The translations under genes were made by a program, and so were the position numbers. From a virus (lineage: Duplodnaviria; Caudoviricetes), in IMG/VR virus record IMGVR_UViG_2974518066_000001, positions 66,139 to 130,138 of that record: a DNA stretch of 64,000 nt. One strand, written 5' to 3'. Shown in pieces: positions 472 to 12,400 of the stretch (the first letter of the stretch is position 1; each line of letters begins with the position of its first letter). Below the pieces are notes generated by a model, which was given only the letters and a program-made list of their open reading frames with translations, did not search any database and was not told the origin of the DNA.

Positions 472-500
472 TTGACATTCGTGAAAAACATCTCTATTAG
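472..500 (+). promoter_or_regulatory. sigma70 promoter of tRNA operon 1
   Basis: TTGACA-N17-TATTAG. Confidence 0.75.
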
Positions 501-503
501 CAC

Positions 504-777
504 AAACACCGGCGAGGGGAACCTTGTCGGTGTTTCTGTCTCCACGGTTTTCCGAGGGGCAGGGAGGGCCGTTGAACGGGCCGAGGAGTAAGCGCCGAGC
601 TTGGGCGCTGAAAGCCAGTCCCGGATACGGTTTCGCAGTTGTAGTCCGAGCATAGCTTCGAGCTGGTGACAGAAGGATGGGCGCTGGATTAAGCACCCAG
701 CGTTTCCGGAATTACCACGAGAAGAACTAGCCCGCTGCGAAGGTAAGCTGACCTGTCACGCGGTAAGTCGTGGTTTC
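504..777 (+). ncRNA. unassigned structured RNA at the head of tRNA operon 1
   Basis: 14-bp hairpin with GGAA loop, several further stems, GTGACAG/CTGTCAC long-range pairing; no credible ORF. Confidence 0.55.
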
Positions 778-779
778 AT

Positions 780-857
780 CTGGGTGTAGCGCAGTCCGGT
801 TAGCGTGTGCGGTTCGGAGCCGTGAGGTCGTAGGTTCAAATCCTACCATCCAGACCA
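780..857 (+). tRNA. tRNA-Pro(CGG)
   Basis: cloverleaf, loop TT-CGG-AG, encoded CCA. Confidence 0.92.
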
Positions 858-865
858 TTTTCAGT

Positions 866-943
866 GCCAGTGTAGCTCAGCCCGGTAGAGCAGGAGGCCC
901 ATACCCTCTTTGTCGGTGGTTCAAATCCACCCGTCTGGCACCA
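866..943 (+). tRNA. tRNA-Met/Ile2(CAT), atypical
   Basis: loop CC-CAT-AC (C33), bulged acceptor stem, CCA. Confidence 0.8.
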
Positions 944-950
944 GTTCTTA

Positions 951-1089
951 GAGGTAACGCCGGTTCGAGCCCGGCTCGCCCGCCCAGCTGGTGATCGTCT
1001 AGTTTCGTAGGACGCCTCGCAAGGGAAACGTCGGTTCAAATCCGGCCCGCCCGTAGTTTAGGGTGGTCGTCTAGTGGTTAGGACGCCCT
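951..1089 (+). ncRNA. tandem circularly permuted tRNA-like modules (YrlA/Y-RNA-like architecture)
   Basis: two units of T-arm, loop-closed acceptor stem, D-arm, closed by GAGG/CCTC and AGGG/CCCT. Confidence 0.65.
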
Positions 1090-1131
1090 GTAATTCGGTC
1101 CAGGTATCCGTCAAATCGGATGGACCAGCGG

Positions 1132-1206
1132 TGGGGATTAGCTCAGCGGTAGAGCAGCCGTTTTACATGCGGCCGGTCGGCGGTTCGATCCCGTCATCCC
1201 TAACCA
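1132..1206 (+). tRNA. tRNA-Val(TAC)
   Basis: cloverleaf, loop TT-TAC-AT, CCA. Confidence 0.92.
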
Positions 1207-1208
1207 AC

Positions 1209-1283
1209 GCCTCGTTAGCTCAGCGGTAGAGCGCTGCTATGACATGGCAGATGACGGTGGTTCAAACCCATCACGAGGCACCA
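1209..1283 (+). tRNA. tRNA-Val(GAC)
   Basis: cloverleaf, loop AT-GAC-AT, CCA. Confidence 0.92.
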
Positions 1284-1287
1284 TTTT

Positions 1288-1555
1288 GAGACCCGAGGTA
1301 AAGGGATGTGAGGCGTGCAAGAGCCACGCGCTTTAGAAGCCCTGATCCTTGCGACGGTAGGCTCACGTCGCACCAGTTAGACCAAATCCGTGGCGGATGC
1401 TGCGGCCACCCGCGAGAGTGCGGTAACACCGGAAGGCCAGAGGGCGGTGGCGGTTAGTTATTCGAGGTTGGGCCTGTCGGACGCGGCAGGTAGGAGATCG
1501 CATAGCCCGGCTGTTAACCGGCGGTCCTATACGGACGTGTGAAGCTCCACCCAGC
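1288..1555 (+). ncRNA. unassigned structured RNA containing a tRNA-Asn anticodon stem-loop copy
   Basis: multiple hairpins; GCCCGGCTGTTAACCGG also present in tRNA-Asn. Confidence 0.5.
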
Positions 1556-1630
1556 GGGGATGTAGCTCAGAGGTAGAGCACCCGTTTTGCAAGCGGAAGC
1601 GCGTCGGTTCGACTCCGACCATCTCCACCA
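1556..1630 (+). tRNA. tRNA-Ala(TGC)
   Basis: cloverleaf, G3:U70, CCA. Confidence 0.93.
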
Positions 1631-1764
1631 GTTTAGGACGGCGAGTGGCCCGGTATTGGTCCGGGCATCAAATGGACTGCGGAGCGGGGAACTATCGCCT
1701 ATCCCGCCCGGTCATGCGAGGACAAAATGGAGCGTGGCGCTCCTACTCGCAACGCCACACCTGT

Positions 1765-1846
1765 TTGGTAGTGACAGAGTGGTAATGTGCCCGGCTGTTA
1801 ACCGGTGACCCGAAAGGCGGTGGTTCGATCCCACCCTACCGAACCA
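1765..1846 (+). tRNA. tRNA-Asn(GTT) with long variable arm
   Basis: loop CT-GTT-AA; CC-GAAA-GG variable stem; CCA. Confidence 0.85.
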
Positions 1847-1847
1847 T

Positions 1848-1924
1848 AGCGGTGTAGCTCAGCCCGGTAGAGCAACCGACCGATAATCGGTGTGTCGCAG
1901 GTTCAAATCCTGCCATCGCTACCA
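1848..1924 (+). tRNA. tRNA-Ile(GAT)
   Basis: loop CC-GAT-AA (C33), CCA. Confidence 0.9.
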
Positions 1925-1946
1925 GTTTCTCGAAAGGACCCGACCC

Positions 1947-2453
1947 TTGAAGAAGATGTTCGTGATGGCGGCTGCGGTAGCCTCAATGCTCGTTGCTGCC
2001 TGCGATCGACAGCCTTCTGCTGCCGAGCGCTGCATGGAGGCCAAGAACCCGCAGGAATGCTATCAGGTGGCAAACGCTGGTGGCGACATCAACGATTACC
2101 TGATCGGTGGCCTCGGCGGTTACATGCTGGCGAAGGTCATGAGCGGCGGGCGGCAGCAGACCGTCATCGTGCAGAACCCGAATTATCATGGGCCGCGCCG
2201 ATACGTCCCCAGCTACGCTTCCAGCCGTCAGCGCGTCCTCAACGGACAGGTCAAGACGGTCAGCACCACGACCACGAAGCGCGGCCTGTTCGGGTCGAAG
2301 ACCACCACCACGACCAAGACTTTCGGCTCCAAGCCTGCCAGCTCGTGGGGCTCTTCCTACTCGAAGCCATCCAAGTCTTGGGGCTCGTCGTCCCGGTCCT
2401 TCTCTTCTTCGCGGTCGTCCTTCTCGTCGCGATCTTCGTTCCGGCGCCGCTGA
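1947..2453 (+). CDS. lipoprotein, DUF1190-like, Ser/Arg-rich tail
   Basis: TTG start after AAGGA; lipobox-like LVAAC; Cys pair, GGLGGYMLAK helix, SSR-rich C-terminus. Confidence 0.7.
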   Translation: MKKMFVMAAAVASMLVAACDRQPSAAERCMEAKNPQECYQVANAGGDINDYLIGGLGGYMLAKVMSGGRQQTVIVQNPNYHGPRRYVPSYASSRQRVLNGQVKTVSTTTTKRGLFGSKTTTTTKTFGSKPASSWGSSYSKPSKSWGSSSRSFSSSRSSFSSRSSFRRR

Positions 2454-2488
2454 CAATCTAGGGTTGGTGAATTATTTCACTAACCCTA

Positions 2489-2517
2489 TTGACAGTTAAA
2501 GTAACTTCCGTTACACT
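2489..2517 (+). promoter_or_regulatory. sigma70 promoter of tRNA operon 2
   Basis: TTGACA-N17-TACACT. Confidence 0.85.
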
Positions 2518-2571
2518 CTCCGCATCATGAGCCAATCGGCTCTCATCAGTTTCAGAGAAAAGCTCACCACC

Positions 2572-2631
2572 ATGTTCACCCGGTTTGGAAAACGAGATCG
2601 CCGAGAAGGCGAACGAGGTTTTAGCCTCTAA
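2572..2631 (+). CDS. attenuator leader peptide 1 MFTRFGKRDRREGERGFSL (in-frame upstream ATG at 2527)
   Basis: core made only of K,G,D,E,R,F, matching downstream tRNAs; followed by antiterminator/terminator. Confidence 0.8.
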   Translation: MFTRFGKRDRREGERGFSL

Positions 2632-2668
2632 CCGGTAGTGTGCCTTTTGCTGCCGGTGCTGTTTTAGC

Positions 2669-2744
2669 GGATCGGTAGCTCAGTAGGTAGAGCAGGGGAT
2701 TCTTACTCCCAAGGTGGACGGTTCAAGCCCGTCTCGATCCTCCA
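2669..2744 (+). tRNA. tRNA-Lys(CTT)
   Basis: loop TT-CTT-AC, U73 discriminator, CCA. Confidence 0.88.
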
Positions 2745-2765
2745 AGACAGCATCGGAAGTTTTAG

Positions 2766-2801
2766 ACACCCTACCGGACACCCGGTGGGGTGTTTTCGTT
2801 T
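2766..2801 (+). terminator. intrinsic terminator (attenuator) after first tRNA of operon 2
   Basis: ACACCCTACCGG/CCGGTGGGGTGT stem plus TTTCGTTT. Confidence 0.8.
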
Positions 2802-2816
2802 GCGCTTCTCGGCTTC

Positions 2817-2892
2817 GGGCCGGTAGCTCAGTAGGCAGAGCAGGGGGCTTTTAACCTCAAGGTGGTCGGTTCAAGCCCGACCCGGCTCACCA
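2817..2892 (+). tRNA. tRNA-Lys(TTT)
   Basis: cloverleaf, loop CT-TTT-AA, CCA. Confidence 0.92.
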
Positions 2893-2900
2893 GTTTCAAT

Positions 2901-2975
2901 GCAGGCGTCGTTCAGACGGTAGGACACCTCCTTGCCATGGAGGAGACGCGGGTTCGAGACCCGCCGCCCGCTCCA
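2901..2975 (+). tRNA. tRNA-Gly(GCC)
   Basis: cloverleaf, U73, CCA. Confidence 0.92.
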
Positions 2976-2987
2976 TCATTCACCTTT

Positions 2988-3064
2988 GGTTCTGTAGCTT
3001 AGCTGGTGAAAGCGCCGGGTTGTCAACTCGGAGATCGCGGGTTCAAGTCCCGTCAGAACCGCCA
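2988..3064 (+). tRNA. tRNA-Asp(GTC)
   Basis: cloverleaf, G73, CCA. Confidence 0.93.
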
Positions 3065-3065
3065 T

Positions 3066-3140
3066 GGGGCGTTCGTCTAGCGGACAGGACGCTGGCTTCT
3101 CAAGCCGGAAGCAGGGGTTCGATTCCCCTACGCCTCACCA
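3066..3140 (+). tRNA. tRNA-Glu(CTC)
   Basis: cloverleaf, loop TT-CTC-AA, CCA. Confidence 0.92.
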
Positions 3141-3148
3141 GTTCACAT

Positions 3149-3224
3149 AGCGCCATCGTCTAGCGAGCAGGACACGTTGGCTTTCACCCTTCGGACGCGG
3201 GTTTGAATCCCGTTGGCGCTGCCA
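3149..3224 (+). tRNA. tRNA-Glu(TTC), distorted anticodon stem
   Basis: loop CT-TTC-AC, tandem U.U mismatches, T-loop TTTGAAT, CCA. Confidence 0.75.
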
Positions 3225-3250
3225 GTGAACAGTTATGAAGAGAGTTTCGA

Positions 3251-3325
3251 GCGACATTAGCTCAGCGGTAGAGCGGCGGTTTTCCAGTCCGCGCGTCAGG
3301 AGTTCGATCCTCCTATGTCGCTCCA
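3251..3325 (+). tRNA. tRNA-Gly(TCC)
   Basis: cloverleaf, U73, CCA. Confidence 0.9.
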
Positions 3326-3334
3326 AATTCTCTT

Positions 3335-3410
3335 GGCCCGGAAGCACAACTGGACGTGCGCTCCGCTACGAACGGAAAGGTTGTGGGTTCGAGTCCCACG
3401 CGGGCCTCCA
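3335..3410 (+). tRNA. tRNA-Arg(ACG)
   Basis: loop CT-ACG-AA, CCA. Confidence 0.9.
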
Positions 3411-3415
3411 TTTTC

Positions 3416-3490
3416 GGTGAGGTAGCTCAGAGGTAGAGCGCCGGTTTGAAAAGCCGGGCGTCGGTGGTTCGATCCCGCCTCTCACCACCA
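3416..3490 (+). tRNA. tRNA-Phe(GAA)
   Basis: cloverleaf, loop TT-GAA-AA, CCA. Confidence 0.93.
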
Positions 3491-3497
3491 GAGGTTT

Positions 3498-3854
3498 ATG
3501 CAAGACGAAATCGAACGAAAGCGACGAAACAGCGCGGCCCACTATGCGAGAAATCGGGAGGCCGTAAAGGCTAAGTCGAGGGCAGCAAAGCCTCTACGCC
3601 GAGCTGCCTGTCACCAGTTCGTCCTAGAGTATTTGCTTAATCACCCTTGTGTCGATTGCGGCGAGGACGATCCGATCGTTTTGGAGTTCGACCATCAACG
3701 AGACAAGAGCTTCGCGATTTCTGATGGAGCCCGAGCCGGGTATAGCCTCAAAAAGCTAGAGGCAGAGATCGCAAAGTGTGAGGTTCGCTGTGCCAACTGC
3801 CACAGACGGAAAACCTACCGGGAGCGCGGATTGGAAAATCGCACCATCCATTAA
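3498..3854 (+). CDS. HNH endonuclease
   Basis: CVDCG..LEFDH..CEVRCANCH motif. Confidence 0.88.
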   Translation: MQDEIERKRRNSAAHYARNREAVKAKSRAAKPLRRAACHQFVLEYLLNHPCVDCGEDDPIVLEFDHQRDKSFAISDGARAGYSLKKLEAEIAKCEVRCANCHRRKTYRERGLENRTIH

Positions 3855-3862
3855 AATAGTTA

Positions 3863-3891
3863 TTGACACTAACCTATAGTTCGGTTATCAT
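3863..3891 (+). promoter_or_regulatory. sigma70 promoter of tRNA operon 3 (probably leaderless transcript)
   Basis: TTGACA-N17-TATCAT, ATG 8 nt after the -10. Confidence 0.85.
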
Positions 3892-3898
3892 TCGCACC

Positions 3899-3967
3899 AT
3901 GTTCACACAGACCACCTTGCTTACGCAGTGCCATTATTGGCAACTGCTATCGAGTTCATCCCTCTAA
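3899..3967 (+). CDS. attenuator leader peptide 2 MFTQTTLLTQCHYWQLLSSSSL
   Basis: core made only of S,Y,L,T,H,Q,C,W, matching downstream tRNAs; same start and end context as leader 1. Confidence 0.85.
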   Translation: MFTQTTLLTQCHYWQLLSSSSL

Positions 3968-4001
3968 GGGAGTGGTTCTGACGCGCCACTCCCCGACCTA
4001 C

Positions 4002-4090
4002 GGAGGGTGGCTGCAAGAGGTGCGTAACCGGTCTCGAAAACCGGGCTGGGGTTAGGAGCCCTACGGGTTCGATCCCTGCACCCTCCGCCA
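4002..4090 (+). tRNA. tRNA-Ser(CGA)
   Basis: class II cloverleaf, G73, CCA. Confidence 0.88.
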
Positions 4091-4097
4091 AGTTTTT

Positions 4098-4138
4098 AAG
4101 CGTCTGCGACCACTCGGTCTCAGGCGCTTTTTCGTTTT
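4098..4138 (+). terminator. intrinsic terminator (attenuator) after first tRNA of operon 3
   Basis: AAGCGTCTG-GACC/GGTC-CAGGCGCTT stem plus T-tract. Confidence 0.8.
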
Positions 4139-4154
4139 GGAGATTTTGATTTTC

Positions 4155-4238
4155 GGGAGGGCTGGGCACGAGTGAGCCCACACGCCTGTAAAGCGGACGC
4201 GAAAGCTGTGAGGGTGCAAATTCCCTCACCTCCCACCA
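4155..4238 (+). tRNA. tRNA-Tyr(GTA), atypical
   Basis: loop CT-GTA-AA, variable stem, T-loop TGCAAAT, CCA. Confidence 0.8.
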
Positions 4239-4243
4239 TTATT

Positions 4244-4328
4244 GGCCCGCTGGTGAAATGTAGACGCACTCGCCTCAGAAGCGAGCGACCGAGAGGTCAT
4301 CCCGGTTCAAATCCGGGGCGGGCCACCA
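4244..4328 (+). tRNA. tRNA-Leu(CAG)
   Basis: class II cloverleaf, CCA. Confidence 0.92.
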
Positions 4329-4333
4329 TGATC

Positions 4334-4418
4334 GGGGATGTGGTGAAATAGGTAAACGCAGCGGGTCGAGAGCCCGCCGCCTGATGGCTTGAGGGTTCAA
4401 GTCCCTCCATCCCCACCA
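4334..4418 (+). tRNA. tRNA-Leu(GAG)
   Basis: class II cloverleaf, loop TC-GAG-AG (C33), CCA. Confidence 0.88.
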
Positions 4419-4449
4419 TGATTATCACGCATCTCAGATGCGCCAGAAT

Positions 4450-4523
4450 GCCCGGTTAGCTCAATGGTAGAGCTACGCCGTCGTAACGCGAGGACGAGGG
4501 TTCGATTCCCTCACCGGGCTCCA
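4450..4523 (+). tRNA. tRNA-Thr(CGT)
   Basis: cloverleaf with mismatched anticodon stem, CCA. Confidence 0.82.
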
Positions 4524-4537
4524 TGCAGGTCTCAGGT

Positions 4538-4611
4538 GTGACCGAGGCAGAGTTGGATCATGTGCCGGGTCGTGATCCCGGATACGGCGGGTTCGAGCCC
4601 CGCCGGTCACC
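4538..4611 (+). tRNA. tRNA-His(GTG), no encoded CCA
   Basis: loop TC-GTG-AT (C33), GTGACCG/CGGTCAC acceptor. Confidence 0.82.
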
Positions 4612-4631
4612 CCTAAGCCCTGCAAGGCTAT

Positions 4632-4705
4632 TTCCCGTTCGTTCAATGGTAGGACGCCCGGCTCTGAACCGGGAGATCGAGGTTCGAGTCCTTGACGGGG
4701 AACCA
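4632..4705 (+). tRNA. tRNA-Gln(CTG)
   Basis: U1:A72 cloverleaf, CCA. Confidence 0.92.
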
Positions 4706-4720
4706 GATTTATCCGCACAC

Positions 4721-4807
4721 GGAGAGTTGCCAGAGCGGTAATGGGCTGGCTTGCTAAGCCAAGACAACCTCACGGTTGCGAGGGTTCGATCCCCTCACTC
4801 TCCTCCA
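4721..4807 (+). tRNA. tRNA-Ser(GCT)
   Basis: class II cloverleaf, CCA. Confidence 0.9.
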
Positions 4808-4815
4808 TCATCACT

Positions 4816-4889
4816 GCCGCCTTGGCCGAGTGGCAAGGCTCCGGATTGCAACCCCGGCATCTCCCGTTCGATCCGGGAAGGCGGCTCCA
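4816..4889 (+). tRNA. tRNA-Cys(GCA)
   Basis: cloverleaf, U73, CCA. Confidence 0.9.
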
Positions 4890-4893
4890 TCAT

Positions 4894-4969
4894 ATCTCCA
4901 AAGCATTAAGGGGCGATGCACCGGTCTCCAAAACCGGCAAGCTGGGTTCGAGTCCTAGTGGAGGTGCCA
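4894..4969 (+). tRNA. tRNA-Trp(CCA)
   Basis: loop CT-CCA-AA, G73, CCA. Confidence 0.9.
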
Positions 4970-5133: not shown

Positions 5134-5165
5134 CGCCGCCGGGTTAATTCCCGGCGGCTTTTTTG
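5134..5165 (+). terminator. intrinsic terminator ending tRNA operon 3
   Basis: GCCGCCGGG/CCCGGCGGC plus T7. Confidence 0.88.
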
Positions 5166-5309
5166 TGCTAATTCGCCTAGAATGATTCGGCAAGGGCGTA
5201 TCTTCTGGTCATTGACTTTTTCGGCATTTTGCTCTATGATCCGGCGTTCTGCATCCGTCTTCGAGGGTGCGTCTCCTCCACATCGTTATCACCCTCACGA
5301 GGACCCATC

Positions 5310-8176: not shown

Positions 8177-9056
8177 TGGCCCGCCGTGCCGTTATCGTCC
8201 GCGCTTCTTAGCGCGGGGCGCCGGGCCACATTTTTAGAAAGGAAGTTGTTGGATACGGAACTTGCCTACCTTGCTGGGTTTCTTGACGGAGAAGGCACGA
8301 TAGGTTTGTTCAAGACTTCTGGTGCCAATGCGTTCAAGGTGCCGTGTATTTCGGTGTCCAGCACGGATAGGTATCTTCTGGATGCTTACGTCCATCGTTT
8401 CGGTGGACACATCCAGACCAAGGCGAGCAAACGGCCTGAAAATCATCGGCAAGCCTATGAATATCGCTTGCGTGGTCCTAAGGCTATTTGCGCGATTTCG
8501 GAGTTGTTTCCGTATTTACGCCACCACGTCAAGCGCGCCAGAGCGACGATGATCTTGGAGCACTTCACCAAGATCACTAAGCGCAACGGGAAATACACCG
8601 AAGCTGAGCGCGCTATAAAGATAAGGTGGGAAGAGTTATTTCTCAGCTTGTCATCGCGAGGTGGCGATGCTTGGACAAGGGATTACCAGCAGTTCGCTGT
8701 TGGTGATGATGATCGTAATTCGGACGATTGAGGACGCGCACGGACCGGGGAGCGTTACCCCGCACCTCCACCATTGCTGCTGAGCGCGAGGCTCAGAACT
8801 TCGGAGACACGGCGGTATCCAACCCGCAGGGCCTCAGTAGCATTGATGGGGGTGAAGTAGGATCGACGTGCAAGGCTGAGAGAAGGACGCGATCGGTTTG
8901 GGTGCTGCCCCTTATGCGGTGCCAAGGCTTTAACTGCCAACGACAATGATGTTGTCACTGCGGAAGTGCGCCTCGCGGCGTAACCCGAGAAATTCCTGAG
9001 CCTTCAACAAGCTCAGGTGCGGACTGGCCCACCGAGCAACAGGACGGGCCACATTT
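8177..9056 (+). ncRNA. ssrA: permuted two-piece tmRNA (acceptor piece 8177-8773 interrupted by HEG; coding piece from 8848), tag ANDNDVVTAEVRLAA
   Basis: CACCTCCACCA 3' end lies before GGGGGTG 5' end, G3:U70, TAACT-GCC-AAC-GAC resume site, tag ends LAA. Confidence 0.9.
8186..8731 (+). CDS. LAGLIDADG homing endonuclease (likely start TTG near 8246)
   Basis: LAYLAGFLDGEG motif; AAGGAAG RBS; lower GC than flanks. Confidence 0.88.
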   Translation: MPLSSALLSAGRRATFLERKLLDTELAYLAGFLDGEGTIGLFKTSGANAFKVPCISVSSTDRYLLDAYVHRFGGHIQTKASKRPENHRQAYEYRLRGPKAICAISELFPYLRHHVKRARATMILEHFTKITKRNGKYTEAERAIKIRWEELFLSLSSRGGDAWTRDYQQFAVGDDDRNSDD

Positions 9057-9286
9057 GAGGCAGGGGCCGATCACAACCTCCCCTGACCGCTCGCTGTGTC
9101 CCCGCGCAGCCGTGATCGGTCTCTTCCTCAACTGTGACAAATTTAGGTGAGGAGCCGTGGCTGCAATCGCGGTGTTTTGCAGGACCGACCGACACAACTG
9201 GACAGTCCTCACCTGATCATCTCTGCAGGGTTTCCCGTTCCCTGCATGACAGCCGGGCGACCCATGTCTCCCCCGAAAGCCCGGCG

Positions 9287-9433: not shown

Positions 9434-12400
9434 ATGGCAACATACACGAAAGCCCTCGCCGAGCTGTTCGACGGGGTAGGGGGCACGGTCGTCCTCCACG
9501 ACGCCGATGGCGCGACTTACGCCGAGACCGATCTGGCGGAGCTGGCGAGCATCGCCGACGAGCTGATTGCCGGTGACCTCGACCCGTGGGTTGATCTGGT
9601 GACCGCCGAAGGCACTGCTATCGGCTTGTTCGTTCCCGGCGACGCCACCGCCGTGAGCCCGCCGCCCAGCGCGATCGTGGATGGTGGCATGGTCTACCTG
9701 TTCAATGAACCGGTCGAAGGTCAGAAGCCGGGCGTGAACCTTTGCCCGCTCGACCTCATCGAAGGCGCCGTGACATATGATCCGACCCGCTTGGAGCTGT
9801 CCACCGACGCCTCCAAGCGTTCGATCACTCTGGGGCAGGGCCGCCGAAGTGATGAAAAGCAGGGCAAGTGGAAGGAGATCACTTCCACCTTCGGCGCGTT
9901 CACCGATTTCCTGCGCCAGCACAATGAAGGCCAGAAGGATGGTCCATGCTTCCTGCAAGGCGCCACGGCTGGTGGCACCCGTAAGGCGGCGGCGATTATC
10001 GGCAACGATGTGCTCGGCGTCGATCTCGATTCCGGTGCGCCCCTGAGTGACGTGATCGACACAATCGTCCGCCATCGGCTGGAGGCTGTGATCTACACGA
10101 CCCACAGCCATCTCAAGGACACCAGCGTCATCAAGCGCGACCATTATTTCAAGTGGTCTGGCGAGCTTGTCGCAACGACCGAAGGCGTCGCGGATTACCT
10201 GCAGCAGGTGAAGGGCGTCCTCCCCCACATCGTCGAGGACGTGGAAATCGTCAACGAGAGCCACCATACCGAAGATGGTATCGTGATCCTCGTGAAGCAC
10301 CGGCCGATGCCAAAATTCCGCGCCGTGTTTCCGCTCAAGGAGACTTTCGTGTTCTCCAAGCGCGGCGGCACCCAGCAGGACGCCATCGCGGAGTGGAAGG
10401 AACGATACGCTGGCTTCTGCACCGAGCTGGGTCTGTTCTTCGACGAGAAGTGCGTCGATCCGGCGCGCCTGTTCTATTTCCCTCGGCACGCCAAGGGCGA
10501 CACCAGCTTTGGCTCGTGGCACGTCGTGGGCGGCGCTCTGGACCTCGACGACTACGACCGTGTGAAGATGAAGCGCGGCCGGGATGGTAAGCGCCGGGCC
10601 GTGTCGAGCAATGCCTTCACGGCGGCTGGCGGCGGCGAGGAAGAGGACGATCGGGAGCGCTACGTCACCGACGATGGCTTCCACCTGCGTCCGTGGGCGG
10701 CGAAGTTCGCCAACCGCTTCGAGGTCGAGATGATGCTGGAGACGGTGGTCGGCGACGACTTCATGCGAGACCCGCGCACCGGCGGTAAGCCCGGCACGCA
10801 CGTCGAGTGCCCCTTCGAGGCGGAGCACACCAGCTTCGGCGGCGGCGGCACCTATGTCGTCAACGCCTCCGACAATATGGATGACGGCTTCGACGGCGGC
10901 TTCACCTTCCACTGTGTTCACAACGCCTGTTCAGGTCGTGACCGGCTCGACTACCTGTGCGAGTTGATCAATCAGGGTGTGATCTCGTCGAAGGACCTGC
11001 AGAACAAGGAGTTCATGGTCGCGCTGGAAGGCGACGACGATGATGAAGATGAAGTCGAGGCGGAAGCCGACGATCGCCGGGTGAATGCCGCAGCGGCCAA
11101 GGCCGGGCTGTCCGGGACGTTCGCAGGTGTTCGTGGCCAGTCCAAGAAGCCTTCGATGGAGGGCATGACCGAGGACGAAATTCTCCTCTGGGAGATGAAC
11201 GATCGCTATGCGGTGATCCGCACCAGCGGCGGCGTCAAGATTCTTGTCGAGCCCCGCACCGCTGATGGCGATGTCTCATTCGAGAGCCAGAACGACGTTG
11301 CCCTGTTCGAGAAGAACAACGTGCTGTGGATGGGCGACGGCAAGAAGGGCAAGCAGAAGATCGAGGTCTTCAAGCTGTGGCTCGAATGGGAGCACCGCCG
11401 CACCTACGTCGATGTCGTCTTCGAGCCGGGCCGGGAGACTGAGGAGCATACCTACAATCTCTTCCGTGGCTGGCCCTACAGCCCGAAGGAGACGTTCTGG
11501 GAGCAGGTCACCGATAACAAGGACAAGCCCGTGCCCGGCGACTGGTCCATGCTTCGTGGTCACATCTACGAGAACATCTGCGAGTCCAACGACGAAATGT
11601 TCGGGTGGTTGATGACGTGGCTGGCCCACCTGTTCCAGCACCCCGACCAAAAGCCGGGCTCCACCGTCGTCGTCACCGGCAAGAAGGGCACCGGCAAGTC
11701 CACGCTCTTCGACTATGTGAACAAGGCTCTGGGGCGCTGCGGGATCACTGTGTCGCAGCGTAAGCAGATCGTCGGCCAGTTCAATGGTCACCTTGCTACG
11801 ACGCTCCTGATGGTCTGCGAAGAAGCCTTCTGGGCAGCGGACCCGCAGGCGGAAGGCGTGCTCAAGGACATGATCACCAACAAGTCGATGTTGATCGAAA
11901 AGAAGGGCTACGACCCGATCCAGTCGAACAACTACACCCGGCTTGCCCTGATCTCGAACAACGAGTGGGTCGTTCCCGCCTCCCTCAAAGACGAGCGTCG
12001 CTTCTTTGTTCTGCGATGCTCCGATGCACGTCAGGGTGACCTTGCTTTCTTCGGCGCCCTCCGTGAACAGATGGAGAAGCTGGGAGGTATCGAGGCCATG
12101 ATGTATGACCTCATGACTTGGGAGCCGACGAACGGTCACTTCTCCTCGCTCTACACGCCGCCGGTGACGCAGTATCTGCAGCAGCAGCAGGTCGAATCTC
12201 TTTCGGGTGTCCAGAAGTTCATGCTTGAACTGGTCAAATCGGGTATCTACGAGACCCATGACGACAAGGTAGAGGCGATCGAACTCAACACCGACAAGGA
12301 GACCATGGTCACGGCGGTGGATATGCGAGCGGCGATCGAAGATTACACCCGCTTCCGGTTTGCTTCCGACAAGGCCAAGACTTCCTATGACGACATTTCG

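Follow-up and report, generated by a model that had tools for sequence, protein, structure and literature searches.

Three phage tRNA units with no shared amino acid, the leader reading frames that match them and a unit that has most likely lost its own

The stretch of 64,000 nucleotides (nt) analyzed here, henceforth the window, comprises bases 66139-130138 of the complete 130,138-bp virus record IMGVR_UViG_2974518066_000001, a sewage phage whose genome is almost certainly that of Sphingobium phage Lacusarx, a CbK-like siphovirus. Its transfer RNA (tRNA) genes, which between them serve all 20 amino acids, are distributed over three units that have no amino acid in common, and the same partition recurs across the relatives of this phage. 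Considering the comparative and structural evidence together, we find it quite probable that in this lineage each of the three units is normally gated by a short leader open reading frame (ORF), and that in the Sphingobium phage units 2 and 3 are still attenuated in this manner, while unit 1 has become ungated and is read from the promoter of an upstream structured RNA.

The partition of the tRNA genes

A combination of ARAGORN, at default and relaxed settings, with the Rfam tRNA model recovers 26 tRNA genes for 20 amino acids at window positions 780-4969. A scan of the whole 130-kb genome found no tRNAs outside genome positions 66918-71107, an interval identical to the one given in the paper describing Lacusarx (PMC5648845); the published annotation lists tRNAs for 18 amino acids only. 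At its default settings ARAGORN reports 24 tRNAs within 780-4969, and the relaxed settings add Met(CAT) at 866-943 and Tyr(GTA) at 4155-4238. Both of these are low-scoring with an imperfect cloverleaf, the Met gene having acceptor mismatches and C33. The former coincides with an additional match to the Rfam tRNA model at 867-939 (41 bits, against a gathering score of 29). The latter aligns with the Tyr genes of three other phages, and in the consensus fold of the four sequences nine pairs are changed on both sides, i.e., covary. Despite their low scores, both are genuine tRNA genes. The units are composed as follows:

780..1924, + strand: unit 1, comprising Pro(CGG) 780-857, Met(CAT) 866-943, Val(TAC) 1132-1206, Val(GAC) 1209-1283, Ala(TGC) 1556-1630, Asn(GTT) 1765-1846 and Ile(GAT) 1848-1924
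2669..3490, + strand: unit 2, comprising Lys(CTT), Lys(TTT), Gly(GCC), Asp(GTC), Glu(CTC), Glu(TTC), Gly(TCC), Arg(ACG) and Phe(GAA)
4002..4969, + strand: unit 3, comprising Ser(CGA), Tyr(GTA) 4155-4238, Leu(CAG), Leu(GAG), Thr(CGT), His(GTG), Gln(CTG), Ser(GCT), Cys(GCA) and Trp(CCA)

The three units are co-directional, each is headed by a sigma-70-like promoter, and in the order P M V V A N I / K K G D E E G R F / S Y L L T H Q S C W the number of amino acids common to any two of them is zero. The claim of the original prediction, that the 20 amino acids are divided among three non-overlapping operons, thus holds for all 26 genes: the ARAGORN check that it proposed bears out the tRNAs, and re-annotation places no amino acid in two operons. 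When the 26 genes were permuted into blocks of 7, 9 and 10, a split without sharing arose in about one of 1000 trials (P ~0.001). As the genes of four of its six isoacceptor pairs lie side by side as duplicates, this window by itself furnishes modest rather than compelling evidence.

More telling are the relatives. DNA searches led to the Erythrobacter phages vB_EliS-L02 (L003) and XM05 (L004), a conserved motif of leader 2 (see below) to the IMG/VR genomes G001/G003/G004, G002 (L013), G005 and G006, and a tRNA-Asn motif to the L019 group; we count as seven distinct relatives L02, XM05, G001/G004, G002, G005, G006 and the L019 group. The metagenome scan with the leader-2 motif returned two further contigs, both resembling G001/G005, and that with a 15-nt leader-3 motif 53 loci, most of which look like chance matches. 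The tRNA-Asn anticodon-arm motif also drew in many unrelated phage arrays, which were kept as negative controls. The mean tRNA identity of the window to all the relatives is 0.70-0.74, values that single out no closest relative and leave the branching order unfixed.

The same three-way split, the conservation of which the original prediction had named as a check, is kept in seven of seven distinct relatives, and the permutation yields P <=1e-4 in each of five of them. Across six distinct phages, namely the present one and five relatives, only 3 of 175 tRNA calls fall outside their own set. One of these is an odd Ile(GAT) with a long arm that L02 carries in unit 2, another is the second tRNA with a CAT anticodon that G001 has in unit 3, and the third is a weak call. 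The second CAT-anticodon tRNA, which may be a Met, an initiator or an Ile(lysidine) tRNA, is located in unit 3 in G001/G004 (L012/L014, ~10253-10326 and ~10524-10597) and in unit 1 in G005 and G006; the G001/G004 version is the clearest exception to the partition. The additional isoacceptors of the relatives (three or four for Arg, two for Gln, two or three for Thr, three or four for Leu and two for Pro) always lie within their own set.

Some of the tRNAs are unusual in themselves. The tRNA with the Asn anticodon GTT at 1765-1846 measures 82 nt, and it has A73 and a long variable arm. L02, XM05 and G001 have a similar long-armed tRNA(GTT) of 85-86 nt with G73, and CcrColossus too has an 89-nt form; in G002, G005 and G006 an ordinary tRNA-Asn of 75-77 nt occupies the site of the long-armed version. 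A synthetase indifferent to the anticodon might charge such a long-armed tRNA(GUU). Likewise, certain Val-type tRNAs of the relatives (L003:3399-3470, L004:4833-4905 and L004:5099-5171), which pass the Rfam tRNA model and are missed by ARAGORN, display a non-canonical T loop resembling GGGCAGGAC in place of TTCGAAT.

Leaders and terminators across the phages

In the window, a matched leader and an intrinsic terminator are both found in unit 2 and in unit 3, and both are missing from unit 1. The elements concerned, together with the terminator at the end of the region, are:

2489..2517, + strand: promoter of unit 2, with 10/12 consensus positions in the promoter scan
2527..2631, + strand: leader ORF 2, with a tail made up of the six amino acids that unit 2 serves (K, G, D, E, R and F)
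2766..2802, + strand: intrinsic terminator after the first tRNA of unit 2 (-25.2 kcal/mol, z-score -6.0), followed by a T-run
3863..3891, + strand: promoter of unit 3, with 11/12 consensus positions in the promoter scan
3899..3967, + strand: leader ORF 3, in which 20/21 residues past the start codon are S, Y, L, T, H, Q, C or W, with all eight represented
4098..4138, + strand: intrinsic terminator after the first tRNA of unit 3 (-20.8 kcal/mol, z-score -5.8), followed by a T-run
5135..5168, + strand: strong terminator closing the tRNA region, with nine G-C pairs and then a T6 run

Leader ORF 2 contains an internal ATG, at 2572, that corresponds to the shorter leaders of the relatives; leader ORF 3 is probably leaderless, because its ATG lies only 8 nt past the -10 box. 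Leader 3 includes the rare residues C, H, Y and W, and when the small ORFs next to tRNAs were surveyed genome-wide, a run of 14/14 residues within the set was reached by leaders 2 and 3 only.

All seven relatives have three leaders each, which settles in the affirmative whether a third leader exists among them, as the original prediction had proposed to check. Their leader 1 is composed of N, V, I, A, M and P residues around a shared NNPAP core (e.g., L003:2156-2242 in L02 and L013:818-910 in G002), and a terminator, consisting of a GC-rich hairpin and a T-run, directly precedes tRNA-Pro in all seven, its stem sequences differing and its structure being kept. In truncated folds of leader 1, the 5' arm of this terminator is predicted to pair with conserved nucleotides ~43-59 of the ORF, which are alternatively paired to ~29-40, and the classic four-segment pattern of 1:2, 2:3 and 3:4 pairings is predicted in four of six phages.

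The correspondence between leaders and units extends throughout the set. A 3x3 table of leaders against amino-acid sets, compiled from leaders 2 and 3 of the window and leaders 1-3 of the relatives, has a chi-square of 409, a value to be read with the caveat that the leaders are homologous and hence do not represent independent events. Between phages the order of the residues in a leader is shuffled and the composition is kept, and nearly every tRNA in a unit has its cognate codon in the leader of that unit. Thus, the further idea of the original prediction, that the partition is such as independent sensor modules would need, is strongly supported, at the level of sequence, by the partition, leaders and terminators of the relatives.

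Between the leader and the strongest terminator, units 2 and 3 each have one tRNA gene, the first of the unit: Lys(CTT) in the former (2669-2802) and Ser(CGA) in the latter (4002-4138). In the relatives, these are the tRNAs whose codons the leaders omit, which fits a production of the two that would be independent of the switch.

A wider test is offered by the phiCbK-type phages, in which the corresponding region has homologues in 45 Caulobacter and Brevundimonas phage records. In CcrColossus one leader (L086:8770-8889), with 35/38 residues in the set {P,T,K,L,H,A,S}, precedes the block P P P T K L L L H A L S S S, and another (L086:15654-15749), with a core that has 14/14 residues in {Y,F,V,I,Q,N,R}, is followed by a terminator and precedes the block Y F V I I V Q Q N R R R. 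Both leaders are also present in phiCbK (L089:692-829 for a phiCbK leader), where one of the two is annotated as the hypothetical protein phiCbK_235. The partition hence differs between the clades, and the leaders change along with it; this co-variation argues for function. We also observed unannotated tRNA-Tyr genes after the second leader in both phiCbK and CcrColossus. Among the unrelated phage tRNA arrays (e.g., DSS3_MAL1 and IMG/VR L020-L033), we found neither a partition nor matching leaders. Phage tRNA arrays in general resemble the present one in being clusters of many tRNA genes, often by genes for tmRNA (transfer-messenger RNA), RtcB and the CCA-adding enzyme, but differ from it in that their isoacceptors are scattered over several clusters.

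Unit 1 and the RNA upstream of it

Concerning unit 1 of the Sphingobium phage, the original prediction had stated that neither a P/M/V/A/N/I-rich leader nor an early terminator is to be found, and the ORF and folding scans concur. There is no ORF rich in these residues in 440-790 in any frame, nor near the tRNAs genome-wide, and no terminator before or just after the tRNA-Pro of unit 1, with no hairpin ahead of that gene (z-score -0.09). An ORF at 451-591 that overlaps the promoter was considered as a cryptic leader and ruled out, as 16/45 of its residues fall in the set, which is about background. What the region does hold is the following:

472..500, + strand: promoter that serves RNA-A and, in this phage, also unit 1 (TTGACA, 17 nt, TATTAG; read by eye)
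504..775, + strand: RNA-A, a conserved structured non-coding RNA, identified by folding and by its homologues
951..1089, + strand: two tandem circularly permuted tRNA-like modules (T arm, loop-closed acceptor, D arm), read from the sequence
1284..1555, + strand: spacer with a 17-nt copy of the tRNA-Asn anticodon arm (1505-1522)
1631..1764, + strand: spacer for which folding gives no support for a structured RNA

The -35 box of the promoter at 472 stands in the same place before RNA-A in G002, XM05, G005 and G006; the consensus scan did not list this promoter because its -10 box ends in G. RNA-A folds with a z-score of -3.4 relative to shuffled sequences, and its 5' hairpin (504-535) with one of -4.5. 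Its closing helix of 22 bp (542-563 paired with 752-773) has about eight pairs changed on both sides across seven phages. A search with an nhmmer profile recovered homologues in at least six other phages, namely G002, XM05, G005, G006, the L019 group and L030, the last being a phage without this partition. All the homologues are preceded by their own TTGACA promoter, and in the relatives the distance from RNA-A to the leader-1 promoter downstream of it ranges from ~20 nt to more than 1 kb. In G002 that promoter is the next element after RNA-A; in XM05, G005, G006 and L019, RNA-A is followed by another promoter, and leader 1 does not begin until more than 1 kb later.

RNA-A has no match in Rfam at E-values up to 5, and several candidate identities were rejected for want of support. 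A T-box is unsupported, there being no T-box or other Rfam match and no terminator or antiterminator after RNA-A. So is a Y RNA: the helix of RNA-A is unlike the YrlA stem, and the phage genome has no TROVE (Ro) gene. Neither an assignment to a GOLLD RNA (RF02032), for which the phage genome contains no match, nor an identification as 6S RNA finds support. RNA-A is a genuine, unclassified phage RNA gene and a bystander rather than a substitute leader, whose sole tie to the control of unit 1 is its new position.

How it came by that position is suggested by the comparison with G002. In the window, just 4 nt separate the end of RNA-A (775) from the start of tRNA-Pro (780), whereas in G002 RNA-A ends at ~L013:716 and tRNA-Pro starts at 993, with a promoter, leader ORF and terminator (~270 nt) in between. 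The window also has one tRNA-Pro fewer than the relatives; comparison with their first and second Pro genes did not single out the counterpart of its single gene. Most likely, therefore, the promoter-leader-terminator cassette of unit 1, ~270 nt, perhaps with one Pro gene, was deleted in this lineage. Loss of the leader is more parsimonious than gain, because every relative has leader 1, and leaders also stand ahead of the main blocks in the phiCbK-type outgroup; a tail motif, VGDGG, is common to leader 1 of XM05 and a leader of CcrColossus, the tails of the other leader-1 sequences being related variants. Since RNA-A abuts tRNA-Pro, unit 1 is probably co-transcribed with it and not attenuated. 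Of the two options that had been envisaged for this operon, either constitutive expression or control by the RNA at 504-777, the former fits the evidence and is the most likely state of unit 1 in this phage; the latter does not, as that RNA is a separate gene with its own promoter.

The structured RNAs of which the original prediction had spoken in operon 1 are borne out only in part. Of four segments considered, two withstand scrutiny: the one at 504-777, which is structured and conserved, and the one at 951-1089, with its tRNA-like modules. The latter modules align only to the tRNA-like part of Rfam YrlA (RF02553, model positions 30-81), with 12-14 bits against a gathering score of 69. Given this non-significant score and the lack of both a Ro-binding stem and a Ro gene in the phage genome, their identification as YrlA or another Y RNA was rejected. 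Homologous stretches occur in G001, G005 and G006. The segments at 1284-1555 and 1631-1764 fold no better than shuffled sequences (z-scores +0.16 and -1.05, respectively) and have no homologue in the relatives (nhmmer); for the former, the copy of the tRNA-Asn arm makes decayed tRNA sequence the likeliest reading. Upstream of unit 1 in L02 and XM05, between that unit and RNA-A, we noted a GOLLD-like RNA by means of Rfam (L003:769-1259, E-value 5e-38, and L004:3349-3833, E-value 1e-31); both copies are just under the gathering score, have an embedded tRNA-like element and are unannotated.

Proposed mechanism, alternatives and context

We propose that each unit would be gated by a short leader ORF, written in the amino acids of that unit and coupled to an intrinsic terminator. 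Under a shortage of the aminoacyl-tRNAs of a given set, a ribosome translating the leader would stall, an antiterminator would form and the tRNA block would be transcribed; under a good supply, transcription would stop at the terminator. Translation of the leader, the stalling and the read-through that it would cause are the predicted steps of this scheme. Each block would thereby constitute a negative-feedback loop on its own products, and such block-specific feedback requires that no amino acid be common to two blocks. In unit 1 of the Sphingobium phage, a single precursor that includes RNA-A would be made from the promoter at 472, RNase P would cut it at the 5' end of tRNA-Pro, and the tRNAs of the unit would be produced irrespective of tRNA supply.

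Several observations weigh against this proposal. The phage tRNAs leave about a third of the codons in the leaders unread, which implies that the quantity sensed would be the whole tRNA pool or the amino-acid supply and not the phage tRNAs specifically. With the main terminator predicted after the first tRNA and an extra hairpin after each leader, the logic of units 2 and 3 would go beyond the textbook case. The promoter at 472 has a weak -10 box. Further, the case for loss of leader 1, as opposed to gain, draws on parsimony and on the tail motif shared by XM05 and CcrColossus, the tRNA identities leaving the branching order unfixed.

Some of these points lend themselves to other explanations. 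The leaders might be translated and regulatory without mediating shortage-induced antitermination, acting by shielding from Rho, with reversed polarity or as a report of amino-acid starvation. The many leader codons that need host tRNAs speak for this, as do the extra hairpins after leaders 2 and 3 and the tRNA ahead of the main terminator, which misfit the simplest model; nonetheless, with leader 1 of the relatives folding in the classic four-segment form with a canonical terminator, and strong intrinsic terminators following leaders 2 and 3, we regard it as unlikely. A more radical alternative makes the partition mere history, with tandem duplication grouping the isoacceptors and the small ORFs arising by chance or being unrelated to tRNA supply. 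The adjacent duplicates and the weak statistics of the window are what this would predict, but it has to contend with a leader composition that tracks the content of the unit in every phage, and does so again in the phiCbK-type phages with their other partition. It must also accommodate the joint occurrence of C, H, Y and W in leader 3, the varying order with constant composition, and the genome-wide uniqueness of leaders 2 and 3; we consider it most improbable.

As to unit 1, RNA-A might have replaced the peptide leader as a cis-regulator after the loss of the latter, in a riboswitch-like or T-box-style manner. It is highly structured, lies between the sole promoter and the first tRNA of the unit, and is just upstream of unit 1 in G002 too. 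That in XM05, G005, G006 and L019 it is a separate unit, set apart from leader 1 as described, that it also occurs in L030 and that it is associated with neither a terminator/antiterminator nor a T-box or other Rfam match render such a role quite unlikely. The missing leader could also be an artefact, arising from an error in assembly or curation or from a deletion during laboratory passage, inasmuch as it is seen in a single genome with a junction of just 4 nt between RNA-A and tRNA-Pro. Against this, the paper on the genome (PMC5648845) describes manual curation, the bases at the junction are all unambiguous, intact functional elements flank it on both sides, and the lower number of tRNA-Pro genes fits a real deletion; an artefact is hence very unlikely. 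Leader gating of the three units, with unit 1 released from it in the Sphingobium phage, remains the reading that we prefer.

Searches of the full-text literature returned no paper on leader-peptide control of tRNA operons. Among the closest parallels are the leaders of the enterobacterial thr (Thr, Ile) and ilvGMEDA (Ile, Val, Leu) operons, which likewise consist of a short ORF with several kinds of regulatory codons and in which the position of the ribosome decides between terminator and antiterminator. However, those leaders control biosynthetic enzymes, whereas here the targets would be tRNA genes, and in a phage at that; six to eight amino acids are represented in each leader, the three leaders together covering all 20; and in units 2 and 3 a whole tRNA intervenes between the leader and the main terminator. 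The pheST attenuator of Escherichia coli, with its pheM leader, is a case of leader-peptide attenuation of a gene of the translation apparatus that responds to the cognate aminoacyl-tRNA; there, one amino acid is sensed and a synthetase is controlled, instead of a tRNA block as proposed here. T-box riboswitches, too, couple the state of tRNA to terminator read-through before translation-related genes, but they bind uncharged tRNA directly and without a ribosome, and no T-box motif is found here.

The nearest published counterpart is the trn operon of Anabaena sp. PCC 7120, a long accessory tRNA array that is induced by translational stress (PMC8421152; PMC10272220). By its authors' account, it is controlled by the transcriptional repressor TrcR (PMC10272220), and the words leader, attenuator and terminator do not occur in the paper on the operon (PMC8421152). 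Its repressor control thus differs from the gating by leader and terminator proposed for the phage units.

It has long been asked why phages carry tRNAs and how these are controlled, and our observations suggest an answer in the form of tRNA blocks supplied on demand through gates read by the ribosome, with the non-overlapping partition as the design feature that would make the gates independent. Going further, one may tentatively entertain, as a possible if rather doubtful extension, that the three-way split is a form of modular surveillance, in which each module would report the loss of a subset of the tRNAs of the cell, for instance to anticodon nucleases of the host or to shut-off in the course of infection, and re-supply only that subset. 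Were this so, the loss of sensor 1 would be an adaptive switch to a permanent supply of P/M/V/A/N/I tRNAs in the Sphingobium host, and the same transcript would bring in additional participants, RNA-A and the permuted tRNA-like modules, in this contest over tRNAs, for example as decoys or as scaffolds for processing. The same logic is present in cultured phages, namely Lacusarx with Sphingobium sp. IP1, the Erythrobacter phages vB_EliS-L02 and XM05, and, most notably, phiCbK and CcrColossus on the model bacterium Caulobacter crescentus. A phage without one gate is a natural variant, for which the comparison with the relatives provides a ready-made control.

The remaining genes in and near the region are two ORFs that separate the units, neither of which has a homologue in the relatives (nhmmer), and a tmRNA:

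1956..2453, + strand: 165-aa ORF between units 1 and 2, with a signal-peptide-like start and a Ser/Thr-rich tail
3498..3854, + strand: 118-aa ORF between units 2 and 3, with Cys/His motifs that are HNH-like by eye

The single Pfam match of the former is a weak one to DUF1190, under the cut-off, and the latter has no match in Pfam. Downstream of the tRNA units, at window positions 8681-9074, lies a permuted (two-piece, alpha-type) tmRNA gene; in the relatives, the tmRNA is located directly after unit 3 and has its own promoter.

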